DNA of 64,000 nt from Alphaproteobacteria bacterium (GTDB taxonomy: Bacteria > Pseudomonadota > Alphaproteobacteria > GCA-2731375), in NCBI GenBank assembly GCA_965225945.1, contig CBDDBZ010000038.1, positions 384,001 to 448,000 on the forward strand, in the 5' to 3' direction. Numbering within the stretch: the stretch's first letter is position 1; the number at the start of each line of letters is the position of its first letter. The position numbers were made by a program, and so were the translations under genes. Of this stretch, positions 6,308 to 13,268 are shown one piece after another. The notes under the pieces are model-generated. The model saw only the letters and a list, made by a program, of their open reading frames with translations, did no database searches and was not told the origin of the DNA.

Positions 6308-7468
6308 TTGGGCATCCGCGATGTCCATCTGGCCATCGTCATGTTGGCGATCGTCGGATCGGCGGCTGTCTTGGCCTCGCCGTGCTGGGCAGAACAAGAC
6401 GCCGACCCGGTTCGTCGAGTTCAGGAACGTCTGATCGGAGCTGGATATAGGCCGGGTCCGACGGGTGACGTTATGCAGCCTCGGACAGGTAAAGACCTAT
6501 GTGCCCTCCAAAGTAAGGAGGGTATGCCGCCGCACGGCAATGTCGACGTTTGGACAAAGCGGTACCTCGTCGTCGCGGCGCGATCCGCGTCAAGGGCCTG
6601 GCCTACCCCAGGTTCGGGTGAAGTGTCACTGGCATTGCGACGGATACAGCAGCAGTTGGCACTGTTGGGCCATGATCCGGGACCGGCCAACGGCATGTTG
6701 GGCCTCAAGACGCGTAGTGCGATCCGACGCTTCCAAGAGAGTCAAGGCTTGCCGCCGACAGGTGAGCCGGACGATTTGACGAGGGCCGCCCTGGCTTCCA
6801 AAGCGGGCAAGGCATCGTCGCGTAGGGTAGGTGCCGCGTCGGGAGAAGTGTCGATTTGGACATACCAGGCGCAGAAGAAGCTGAAGTCGCTTGGCTACGA
6901 TCCGGGAGCGATCAACGGTGTCATGTCTCGGAAGACACGAGCAGCGCTGATCAGGTTCCAAGAAGTTTCAGGCCTCAAGTCGTCCGGTGACATCGATTCG
7001 GCGACGAGAGCGGCGCTGGACGGGGCGGAACCGATCGCGCTGCCGCTTTCCACTGGCGGAGCCGAAGGACAGGTCGCAAGGATGCCGACCGACGATGCCG
7101 CCCCCGTCGACGTCGCGGCGACGCCGCCCGGGTCTGCCGTGCCGTCGATCACGCCGGATGCGACAACGGCGTCGTCGGTGGCGGTTTCGCCAGCACCGAC
7201 GACATCGGGGCGGGCGGTTCAATCGTCAGGCGAACGCGCCGCGCCTGGTTCCGAGTCGAGTGGTGACGAGGGCGGCGGTGGTGGCGCGGCGATCTGGTTG
7301 TTGTTGGGCGTTGGTGCGCTCCTGCTGTGGTTTTATCGCCGGCGTCGAAAGCGGCGTCGCGCCACGGCCCCGCGAGTAACGAGGTCTAAACCCGAATCCC
7401 TTGCCCGAACCTCCGAGCCCACGGCGACCAACGCGAAATCCACAACCTGCGCGCCGGCGCCAGAGTAA
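6308..7468 (+). CDS. Signal peptide + 3 peptidoglycan-binding domains + linker + TM helix; probable N-terminal half of a frameshifted SngA-like gene
   Basis: AGGAGG at 6297-6302 before TTG; three Q..L...GY/HxPG...G....T..A...FQ...GL...G..D..T repeats (first degenerate); AIWLLLGVGALLLWFY followed by RRRRKRRR. Confidence 0.85.
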   Translation: MGIRDVHLAIVMLAIVGSAAVLASPCWAEQDADPVRRVQERLIGAGYRPGPTGDVMQPRTGKDLCALQSKEGMPPHGNVDVWTKRYLVVAARSASRAWPTPGSGEVSLALRRIQQQLALLGHDPGPANGMLGLKTRSAIRRFQESQGLPPTGEPDDLTRAALASKAGKASSRRVGAASGEVSIWTYQAQKKLKSLGYDPGAINGVMSRKTRAALIRFQEVSGLKSSGDIDSATRAALDGAEPIALPLSTGGAEGQVARMPTDDAAPVDVAATPPGSAVPSITPDATTASSVAVSPAPTTSGRAVQSSGERAAPGSESSGDEGGGGGAAIWLLLGVGALLLWFYRRRRKRRRATAPRVTRSKPESLARTSEPTATNAKSTTCAPAPE

Positions 7469-7550
7469 CGAGGTCTAAACCCGAATCCCTTGCCCGAACC
7501 TCCGAGCCCACGGCGACCAACGCGAAATCCACAACCTGCGCGCCGGCGCC
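7374..7550 (+). repeat. Exact 88-bp tandem duplication, period 89 bp (7374-7461 and 7463-7550)
   Basis: gagtaacgaggtctaaacccgaatcc...gcgccggcgcc occurs twice, separated by one A. Confidence 0.97.
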
Positions 7551-10999: not shown

Positions 11000-13268
11000 C
11001 CTCGATCGCGATAACGTGGCACGGACCTCTTCCAGTTTCGAGCTGTTGGCGCCACCGATCCAACAATGGATATGGCGACAGCGGTGGCGTGACCTCAGAG
11101 ATATCCAAGAGCGCTCGATACCCGTCCTCTTGCGGGAGGACACGGACGTCATAATTTCGGCCGCCACCGCTGGTGGAAAGACCGAAGCCGCCTTTTTGCC
11201 GTTGCTGTCCAGAGTCGTGACTTCGGAACGCTCCCGTCAAGGCTTCGACCTCCTCTACGTGAGCCCGTTGAAAGCGCTCATCAACGACCAATTCCGCCGC
11301 CTCGACGAGCTTTGCGAGATCATCGAGGTGCCGGTGCACCGATGGCATGGCGACGTCTCGGCGAGCGCGAAGGCAAAGGCACGGAAAAATCCGGCCGGGG
11401 TGCTGTTGATCACGCCGGAATCGCTGGAGGCGATTTTCGTGCGTCGCGGCTTGGAGGTGCCTGGCCTCTTCGGCGGGCTCGACGCCGTCGTCATCGATGA
11501 ATTGCATGCCATGCTGGGCACCGAACGTGGCGTTCACCTCAGATCGTTGCTTTGCCGTATCGAGACCACCACCGGGCGTCGGGTGCGACGCATCGGTCTC
11601 TCCGCGACTCTCGGTGACATGGCGTTGGCGGCGGCTTTTCTGCGGCCGGAGGCGCCGGACGACGCCGAAATTCTAAAAAGCGCGTCCGGGGAGCAGGAAC
11701 TAAAGCTGCAGCTCAGAGGTTACGTCGTCCGCAGGCACCCGAAGGGCACGAACGGGGTCCAGCGGCGCGATGCCGGAGAGACCGAAGACGGGGAAGCCGA
11801 CGAGGCGACGGAGCGTGCCATCGCCAAGCATCTGTTCGAACACCTACGGGGATCGCAGAACCTGATCTTCGCCGGATCGCGTGGGAACGTGGAACTCTAT
11901 GCCGATCGGTTGAGGCGGATGTCCGAGGCGGCGCGTTTACCCAACGAGTTCCACGCCCACCATGCCAACTTGGCCCGAGATCATCGTGAGTTCGTGGAGG
12001 CCCGGCTCAAGAGTGCCGAGGAACCGACGACCGCCGTCTGCACTTCCACGTTGGAACTCGGCATAGACATCGGCGAAGTGGCGGGTGTCGCCCAGATTGG
12101 CCCGCCTTACTCCGTCGCGAGCATGCGCCAACGACTCGGACGTTCCGGCCGTCGCGCCGACATTCCCGCGACCATGCGGGCTTACGTCCAGGAAGATGAG
12201 ATCGACGCGAGGAGCGATTCGCTCGACGCCCTGCGCCTACGGATGGTGCAGACCGTGGCCATGATCGACCTCCTGATCGACGGCTGGTGCGAGCCCCCGG
12301 TTAGGCAGGCGCTGCACCTTTCGACCTTCGTGCATCAGGTCCTATCGGTCATCGCGGAACGGAACGGTGCCACGCCGAGAACACTCTTCGATCTCCTATG
12401 TACCCGTGGCGCCTTTCAGGCGATCGATCAACCGCTCTTTCTCGATGTTCTTCGCTGCATCGGCAATGCGGACGTCGCGTTGATCGAGCAGTCGCCGGAT
12501 GGCACGCTTTTGCTGGGCGCCGTCGGCGAGCGCTTGGTCGAGCACTACGGCTTCTATGCCGTGTTCTTGTCACCCCAGGAATATAGGGTCGTGGTGGAAG
12601 GACGGCCTCTCGGAACGCTGCCGATTACCTTTGTGGTGATCGCCGACATGACCATTATATTTTCCGGTCGACGTTGGCGCGTACTCGATGTGGACGACAA
12701 AGCGAAAGTCATCGACGTGACGCCCGATCCAACCGGCCACGCGCCCAGGTTCGGAGGCGACGCGGGGGACGTGCACGATTGCGTCGCGAAAAAGATGTTC
12801 GCGGTTTACCAAGGTGAAGTCGTCCCACCCTATCTGGACGCGACGGCCCGCGAGTTACTGTCGGAAGGCCGCGCGACCTTCCAGCGCATGGGTCTCGATG
12901 ATGCTTCCATGGTTTCGTTGGATCAGCAACGGAGTTTGCTCTTCCCCTGGCACGGTACCGTGGCGATCGAGACCCTGACCTTGGCGTTGGTCGCGGCCGG
13001 ACTGAAGGCCGCGCCACGCAAACATATCGCGATCGAGGTGGAGGCCGGCCCTCAGGACGTTTCGAAAGTCTTGTTCGAACTATCGAACGGGCCCGTGCCG
13101 TTTTCGATCGAACTCGCCGCGCATGTGCGCAATCTGGAGCGGGAAAAATACCACGTGTACTTGAATCGGCGTCTGTTGCAATTGGACGTGGCTTCGGGTC
13201 GAATACGGCCTGAAATCGTCCCGAATTTGGCGGTACGGCTCCAGTCCGGTCTCCCGTCGGCAGAATGA
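10968..13268 (+). CDS. sngC: Lhr-like DEAD/DEAH helicase (Shango SngC-like); start uncertain (ATG 10968 or GTG 11016)
   Basis: AATAGGKTEA, SPLKALINDQ, DELH, LSAT, TSTLELGIDIG, QRLGRSGRR. Confidence 0.9.
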   Translation: MTSSPPSNSADLDRDNVARTSSSFELLAPPIQQWIWRQRWRDLRDIQERSIPVLLREDTDVIISAATAGGKTEAAFLPLLSRVVTSERSRQGFDLLYVSPLKALINDQFRRLDELCEIIEVPVHRWHGDVSASAKAKARKNPAGVLLITPESLEAIFVRRGLEVPGLFGGLDAVVIDELHAMLGTERGVHLRSLLCRIETTTGRRVRRIGLSATLGDMALAAAFLRPEAPDDAEILKSASGEQELKLQLRGYVVRRHPKGTNGVQRRDAGETEDGEADEATERAIAKHLFEHLRGSQNLIFAGSRGNVELYADRLRRMSEAARLPNEFHAHHANLARDHREFVEARLKSAEEPTTAVCTSTLELGIDIGEVAGVAQIGPPYSVASMRQRLGRSGRRADIPATMRAYVQEDEIDARSDSLDALRLRMVQTVAMIDLLIDGWCEPPVRQALHLSTFVHQVLSVIAERNGATPRTLFDLLCTRGAFQAIDQPLFLDVLRCIGNADVALIEQSPDGTLLLGAVGERLVEHYGFYAVFLSPQEYRVVVEGRPLGTLPITFVVIADMTIIFSGRRWRVLDVDDKAKVIDVTPDPTGHAPRFGGDAGDVHDCVAKKMFAVYQGEVVPPYLDATARELLSEGRATFQRMGLDDASMVSLDQQRSLLFPWHGTVAIETLTLALVAAGLKAAPRKHIAIEVEAGPQDVSKVLFELSNGPVPFSIELAAHVRNLEREKYHVYLNRRLLQLDVASGRIRPEIVPNLAVRLQSGLPSAE

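Follow-up and report, generated by a model that had tools for sequence, protein, structure and literature searches.

The window is the whole 64,000-nucleotide stretch analysed here, part of contig CBDDBZ010000038.1 of an Alphaproteobacteria bacterium assembly (GCA_965225945.1). Positions 6308–13268 of its forward strand are predicted from profile matches to hold a complete three-gene Shango (SngA-SngB-SngC) anti-phage operon, whose first gene, sngA, is divided in the assembly between two open reading frames (ORFs), 6308–7468 and 7591–9555. Two reports (Millman et al. 2022 preprint; Johnson et al. 2023), in the parts drawn on here, describe the validation of Shango (SngABC) in E. coli and in Pseudomonas aeruginosa PA14. 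On the window ORFs, the PADLOC models returned SngA at 8.8e-71 (238 bits), SngB at 1e-177 (590 bits) and SngC at 8.6e-269 (892 bits), and a six-frame search with the SngA family model matched at 1.2e-75. The locus resembles validated Shango in that its three genes encode a TerB-domain protein followed by an ATPase and a DEAD/DEAH helicase, with all three PADLOC models strong, and the assignment to Shango made in a preliminary description of this DNA is borne out by these matches. A bacteriophage exclusion (BREX) accessory module was rejected as an alternative identity. The Brx models scored far below the Sng models (BrxD 160 bits, BrxHI 392 bits), and the operon flanks are metabolic, with no BREX genes found in them. 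Both downstream genes are intact (Table 1). The real sngC start is probably a later methionine codon than that at 10938, because the SngC profile match starts only at residue 31.

Architecture and interruptions of sngA

The N-terminal ORF, 6308–7468, contains three stretches of PG_binding_1 (PF01471) with a score of 125.5 bits, where the family cut-off is 23. A purpose-built hidden Markov model for peptidoglycan (PG) binding gave E-values of 5.6e-20, 2.1e-23 and 3.3e-22 on the three repeats, which occupy residues 34–88, 109–164 and 185–238. In a search of PDB sequences the repeats matched the PG-binding parts of the lytic transglycosylases SltB3 (5ao8/5anz). Only two hydropathy peaks are present in this ORF, at residues 6–24 and at about 327–343. 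The first forms the core of a predicted signal peptide, with cleavage expected after CWA, and the second is a putative transmembrane (TM) helix flanked by net charges of −3 before and +9 after. Hydropathy and this positive-inside charge pattern together indicate that SngA would be a bitopic inner-membrane protein oriented N-out/C-in, in agreement with the membrane-spanning topology proposed in the preliminary description. The second ORF, 7591–9555, supplies the TerB_N (164.6 bits), TerB (39.9 bits) and TerB_C (43.8 bits) domains, all above the Pfam cut-offs.

The two ORFs are separated by a perfect tandem duplication, reported by Tandem Repeats Finder (TRF) as a period-89, 2.0-copy, 100% array at 7374–7550. 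Its effect is a net insertion of 89 bp, and hence a frameshift in sngA. The frame of ORF 7591–9555 remains open upstream to about 7390 and reads copy 2 exactly as ORF 6308–7468 reads copy 1. Removal of 89 bp yields a single open frame of 1052 residues with the junction that the preliminary description had quoted, although the unit proved to be 88 bp plus one filler base and not an 89-bp repeat. Which 89 bases are removed makes no difference to the protein, as CCA and CCT both encode proline. Counted from the GTG at 7591, the TerB_N match covers profile positions 9–207. It extends to positions 1–207, at 171.7 bits, when the unchanged upstream frame is included (7462–9555). The six-frame PADLOC SngA match likewise begins at 7525. 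Since both profile matches start upstream of the GTG, ORF 7591–9555 is, from its sequence, 5′-truncated as a gene of its own and lacks its own beginning.

A second lesion affects the far end of the same gene. It contains the TGA at 9553–9555 and garbles a conserved C-terminal motif (GALETxNEW in relatives). When its 15 extra bases are removed, the SngA tail runs through the motif to the next TGA in frame (Table 1), giving 698 residues counted from 7591. This read-through tail agrees with the loose end of a contig from a public sequencing run (X1, see below) and with the tails of four relatives (P0027, P0032, P0036 and L013), and in the six-frame search the SngA profile match passes through the single TGA and on to 9642. 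Because the tail fits the contigs, the homolog tails and the SngA profile, native SngA is estimated at about 1096 residues. With both breaks removed, native sngA is predicted to span 6308–9702 and to encode a bitopic protein, with the length (about 1050–1100 residues) and the domains that had been proposed.

Table 1. Features of the Shango locus, in window coordinates
Feature	Position	Strand	Evidence or remark
Shine-Dalgarno AGGAGG, 5 nt ahead of the sngA TTG start	6297–6302	+	sequence
sngA TTG start and predicted Sec signal peptide, aa 1–28	6308–6391	+	hydropathy, core aa 6–24; AlphaFold2 (AF2) helix 3–22, predicted local distance difference test score (pLDDT) about 72
Three PG_binding_1 repeats, predicted periplasmic	6407–6571, 6632–6799, 6860–7021	+	Pfam PF01471, E 8.9e-37
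P/T/S/A/G-rich linker, 88 aa (aa 239–326), 69% these residues	7022–7285	+	composition
Predicted single TM helix (aa 327–343), then RRRRKRRR (aa 344–351)	7286–7360	+	hydropathy; AF2 helix 325–353, pLDDT 68–92
Perfect 88-bp direct duplication (7374–7461 = 7463–7550), filler base 7462	7374–7550	+	TRF and base-by-base script
Premature TAA from the frameshift	7466–7468	+	ORF 6308–7468 ends four bases into copy 2
TerB_N, full profile 1–207	7570–8184	+	Pfam on unchanged 7462–9555, 171.7 bits; begins 21 nt upstream of GTG 7591
TerB	8812–9135	+	Pfam
TerB_C, profile 16–111 of 148, shortened by the second lesion	9268–9525	+	Pfam
Second lesion, five small groups of extra bases, 15 in total	9527–9567	+	bases (at 9527–9562) absent from contigs of runs X5, X7 and X8
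Inferred native sngA stop TGA, 29-nt overlap with sngB	9700–9702	+	script read-through; tails of P0027 and L013 end alike
sngB, BrxC/D-like (former DUF2791) ATPase, intact	9674–10999	+	PF10923 9.5e-154; PADLOC SngB profile 1–438 of 439
sngC, DEAD/DEAH helicase, intact	10938–13268	+	PF00270 and PF00271 (DEAD, Helicase_C); PADLOC SngC profile 3–709 of 720

Recurrence of the predicted anchored form among SngA relatives

Two sets of relatives were surveyed: the 150 best of 3758 SngA-like representatives (clusters at 50% identity), and the best 80 loci from a set of species genomes. A PG-binding domain lies ahead of TerB_N in 41 of the 150 nearest representatives. The others have hydrophobic segments only (53), short N-termini (29) or longer N-termini with neither feature (23), and four are fragments. 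The order seen in 36 of the 41 PG-bearing proteins is hydrophobic N-terminus, PG domain, TM helix, at least three Lys/Arg residues and core. Among long homologs (>1146 aa with a core match), 20 of 26 combine PF01471 with three TerB domains, several of them from named Mesorhizobium species. In the species genomes the PG domain is present upstream in the same frame at 6 of 80 loci; a PG domain in a different frame or encoded as a separate gene was found at none of the 80, and a hydrophobic segment occurs in the N-terminal extension of at least 67. One of the six, from a Planctomycetaceae metagenome-assembled genome (MAG), carries a stop codon in frame within the PG domain (L004:2628–2795) and may be another broken or mis-assembled copy.

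Intact PG_binding_1–TerB_N fusions, which the preliminary description had suggested looking for, are thus readily found. Because such homologs exist, we regard the fusion as the native form and the two window ORFs, on the strength of this comparison, as one gene. The single-copy contigs described below support the same conclusion.

The proteins of Mesorhizobium, Erythrobacter, Denitrobaculum and Henriciella (P0012, L002, L012 and L043) share the domain order and the predicted topology of the window SngA. They differ in having one PG_binding_1 copy where the window has three, and many such fusions have a much longer cytoplasmic linker. A single copy was present in all 61 PG-model matches (41 representatives and 20 long homologs); the predicted three-repeat ectodomain was seen only in the window. 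Relatives with a TM segment alone (mostly Rhodobacteraceae/Paracoccaceae, L029–L081) retain the same core at 41–49% identity and the same SngB and SngC downstream. Ahead of TerB_N they also share the N-terminal hydrophobic helix, the basic cluster and a disordered linker, but they lack a periplasmic domain and carry one or two TM segments.

The window SngA differs from validated Shango in having about 400 additional N-terminal residues, part of them predicted to lie outside the cytoplasm. The PADLOC SngA model has about 49 positions before the GG-x-x-YVG lead-in (the window core matches profile positions 50–485 of 528). Validated SngA proteins presumably have no TM helix, because a signal peptide, PG repeats and a TM segment could not be accommodated in a model of this length.

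We reconstructed a quick FastTree phylogeny of 146 cores, omitting the four fragments and one core of <500 aa; the short SngA forms on this tree may include truncated gene calls. A single origin of the PG-bearing forms was rejected: on this tree the PG label must change 24 times, and starred branches force at least 19 of these changes. Because of these changes, and because the nearest core relative of the window protein is a short cytoplasmic form, the N-terminal module of SngA appears from the sequences to be exchangeable, as expected of a localisation or sensor module. Other modules found on SngA cores include DUF3320, two Lcl_C domains and DUF4236 (among P0001, P0003 and P0026). Two Spirochaetia loci (L003 and L008, upstream of position 8001) encode a glycine-rich double-TM stretch, which we take to resemble a TM2 domain.

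The preliminary description knew of no Shango with this architecture. This stands for the papers searched: our full-text literature search returned no paper joining Shango, SngA or TerB_N to a PG-binding domain, with supplementary tables, which may hold domain or TM annotations, outside the search. It does not hold for sequence databases, where the design is common. The envelope-anchored variant has thus apparently gone unremarked in print. It constitutes a large, recurrent SngA subtype for which anchoring in the inner membrane is predicted, joined by anchoring in the cell wall in about a quarter of the nearest clusters.

Origin of the two breaks

Assembled contigs (Logan) of four public runs from four studies (X1, X5, X7 and X8) were aligned to window positions 6200–9700; the other listed runs (X2–X4, X6, X9 and X10) were left out of this comparison. 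Contigs in all four runs join 7373 directly to 7463, the single-copy form. Three runs from three studies (X5, X7 and X8) provide single unbroken contigs through the whole stretch, of 8113, 8835 and 8835 nt. An assembler based on a 31-mer graph would not be expected to carry a contig unbroken through a tandem duplication that is dominant and has a unique joint. Given this expected behaviour, the unbroken contigs suggest that the single-copy form predominates in these runs or is the only one present. The 0.97 word share in runs X5 and X6 would fit loss of the joint words alone. Over about 3.4 kb, the X5 contig differs from the window by six insertion/deletion (indel) events and zero substitutions.

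We also examined the whole assembly (6.27 Mb) for tandem duplications, counting those that were near-perfect, in two copies and with a period of at least 30 bp. There are 48, with periods of 30–286 bp and no in-frame bias (16, 18 and 14 for period modulo 3). Several break ORFs that reopen when the duplication is collapsed, for instance from 294 to 595 aa and from 1510 to 1998 aa. The control loci, 1.21 Mb taken from 80 other genomes, contained zero such two-copy duplications. Examples elsewhere in the assembly lie at C34:100960–101329, C39:367779–367878, C33:144062–144231 and C38:549415–549669.

Both sngA breaks are most likely assembly or consensus defects and not features of the system, because the indels occur without substitutions, the duplications are genome-wide and unselected, and the breaks are absent from the other data. 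The account of the locus in the preliminary description included neither the second lesion nor the assembly-wide duplications. The problem probably touches many genes of the whole genome. With dozens of gene-breaking tandem duplications in this assembly, its apparent pseudogenes need read support.

If both lesions were instead real, sngA would be a fresh pseudogene beside intact sngB and sngC, for example a costly defence lost in a host-associated bacterium. The two lesions do fall in the same gene and each brings a stop, the in-frame stop of the Planctomycetaceae locus provides a parallel from another genome, and contigs prove the presence of a variant rather than its absence. However, six indels with no substitution make an unnatural mutation spectrum, and the 48 duplications show no frame bias, with several of them interrupting long ORFs. 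The duplication-free control loci, and the single-copy form running continuously through three long contigs from three studies, argue in the same direction. We consider loss of the gene unlikely, though it deserves more weight than the next two explanations. The duplication could also act as a reversible on/off switch, since perfect tandem duplications readily collapse and form again, making the anchored SngA phase-variable in the population, and one- and two-copy forms of otherwise identical sequence are indeed both present in public data (the X5 contig and the window). A switch is nevertheless very improbable: the unit is not flanked by microhomology, there is a filler base at the joint, and a repeat at this site occurs in 0 of 80 homologous loci. 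The 48 duplications are scattered over the genome in random frames, functional scrutiny having been given to the one in sngA. Least credible of all is a functional split into a separate wall/membrane protein (6308–7468) and a cytoplasmic SngA translated from GTG 7591; this start codon is present and short cytoplasmic SngA forms exist in nature (the 29 representatives above), yet TerB_N homology begins upstream of it, none of the 80 loci keeps the PG domain as a separate gene or in another frame, and the upstream ORF terminates within the second copy of a stretch that it has itself already read.

Modelled contacts with SngB and proposed role at the envelope

The operon is conserved among the relatives. 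SngB follows SngA at 79 of the 80 species loci and SngC, in the same order, at 73; in six of the seven loci that lack SngC the contig ends right after sngA or sngB. In the seventh, a Burkholderiaceae MAG (L026), SngB is matched only in part and SngC is missing, even though the contig continues for about 4 kb. Mean column identity is 74% for SngB against 38% for SngA, in alignments of 27 and 28 loci from several phyla.

The C-terminal part of an intact PG-type SngA (L012, residues 500–961) was co-folded with the SngB of the same locus, both with alignments. The pair scored 0.62, compared to 0.00 for the best of three controls. Of 80 solved complexes 58 attained that mark, as did 2 of 110 mismatched pairs; these counts apply only roughly, because the co-fold used in-house alignments. 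The co-fold runs share at least 80% of their contacts, with a partner pLDDT of 80. Contacts of lowest error involve SngA residues 921–935, which correspond to the invariant C-terminal motif, and the SngA segment in modelled contact with SngB is the one garbled by the second lesion of the window. The score is unlikely to reflect recall of a solved complex, since no PDB relative of the SngA core was found by single sequence or by profile. The model supports, but does not show, docking of SngB on the C-terminal motif of SngA.

We propose that SngA serves as an envelope-fixed scaffold that would keep the ATPase beneath the membrane, probably together with the helicase. The ectodomain would fix the protein to the sacculus and the TM helix would fix it in the inner membrane, and the conserved C-terminal helix of TerB_C would dock the SngB ATPase. 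SngB, presumably with the SngC helicase, may thereby be positioned at the envelope, the place of phage DNA entry. We estimate a probability of roughly 0.8 that the window holds a complete Shango operon in which native sngA encodes an envelope-anchored protein of about 1096 residues, with both breaks likely artefacts and SngB docked at the envelope.

Several points weigh against this interpretation. Contigs drop rare variants, and the comparison was made with contigs instead of raw reads, so that the duplicated form is possible as a minor or strain-specific allele, a real private mutation; the four runs, in addition, need not include the source of the window. The nearest core relative (P0027, at about 60% identity) belongs to the short forms and has no N-terminal module of any kind, and because of this the anchor appears, at the sequence level, dispensable in some Shango systems. 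Searching longer proteins with the N-terminal ORF recovered no full-length ortholog, which is weak evidence; its four matches were all unrelated PG-binding enzymes. The predicted topology comes from an in-house hydropathy and charge script rather than a dedicated predictor. For ORF 6308–7468 the AF2 model built from the single sequence is poor (mean pLDDT 46.8), with pLDDT <50 over most of the PG repeats, where the three-helix fold of the PG_binding_1 family is expected, and confidence only in the two hydrophobic helices. Peptidoglycan binding and anti-phage activity are likewise both predictions from sequence.

On how Shango works, those parts of the literature used here go no further than the suggestion that TerB proteins may take part in 'membrane surveillance'. 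An envelope-anchored SngA makes that suggestion concrete and open to experiment. A bolder extension is that the SngA N-terminal modules (PG_binding_1 ectodomains, TM anchors and other envelope modules) act as the Shango sensor of phage-made peptidoglycan damage, passing a signal across the membrane to the TerB domains that would activate SngB and SngC at the site of DNA entry. We view this sensor role as speculative and improbable at present; if true, Shango would be an envelope-breach-triggered nucleic-acid defence. The sensing of peptidoglycan breach or DNA injection put forward in the preliminary description is equally conjectural.

Partial parallels to the envelope-anchored scaffold exist elsewhere. 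Bunzi BnzA and Dionysus DinB are TerB-domain anti-phage proteins for which 'membrane surveillance' has been proposed, with TM helices predicted for the TerB protein of Bunzi, according to the portions of the published accounts consulted. They differ from SngA in their partners, which do not include an ATPase and helicase of the SngB/SngC type, and in lacking the TerB_N/TerB_C frame; no PG-binding domain is reported for either in those portions. ExeA/GspA of type II secretion is an inner-membrane protein in which one TM helix couples a cytoplasmic ATPase module to a sacculus-binding PG_binding_1 domain in the periplasm. It has the opposite, N-in orientation, functions in secretion assembly and contains no TerB domains. 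The likeness to SngA is one of analogy, without homology beyond the PG domain.

No SngA match was found in the 60 related genomes searched, and for this reason no close ortholog is available for synteny comparison. A scan of 5800–13600 for promoters and terminators was uninformative (one promoter-like site against 1.4 expected, three terminator-like sites against 6.1 expected), and no tRNA was detected in a scan of the window, hence no obvious integration site. The operon is flanked by genes for an amidase, an isochorismatase, two polysaccharide deacetylases, an acyl-CoA ligase, an enoyl-CoA hydratase and an IS630-type transposase. The transposase gene, with DDE_3 and helix-turn-helix (HTH) domains, lies at 16776–17858, 3.5 kb downstream of the operon. 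The G+C content of the operon (0.58–0.65) is below that of the flanks (0.66–0.71), and this difference, together with the nearby IS630-like transposase, suggests that the operon was horizontally acquired.

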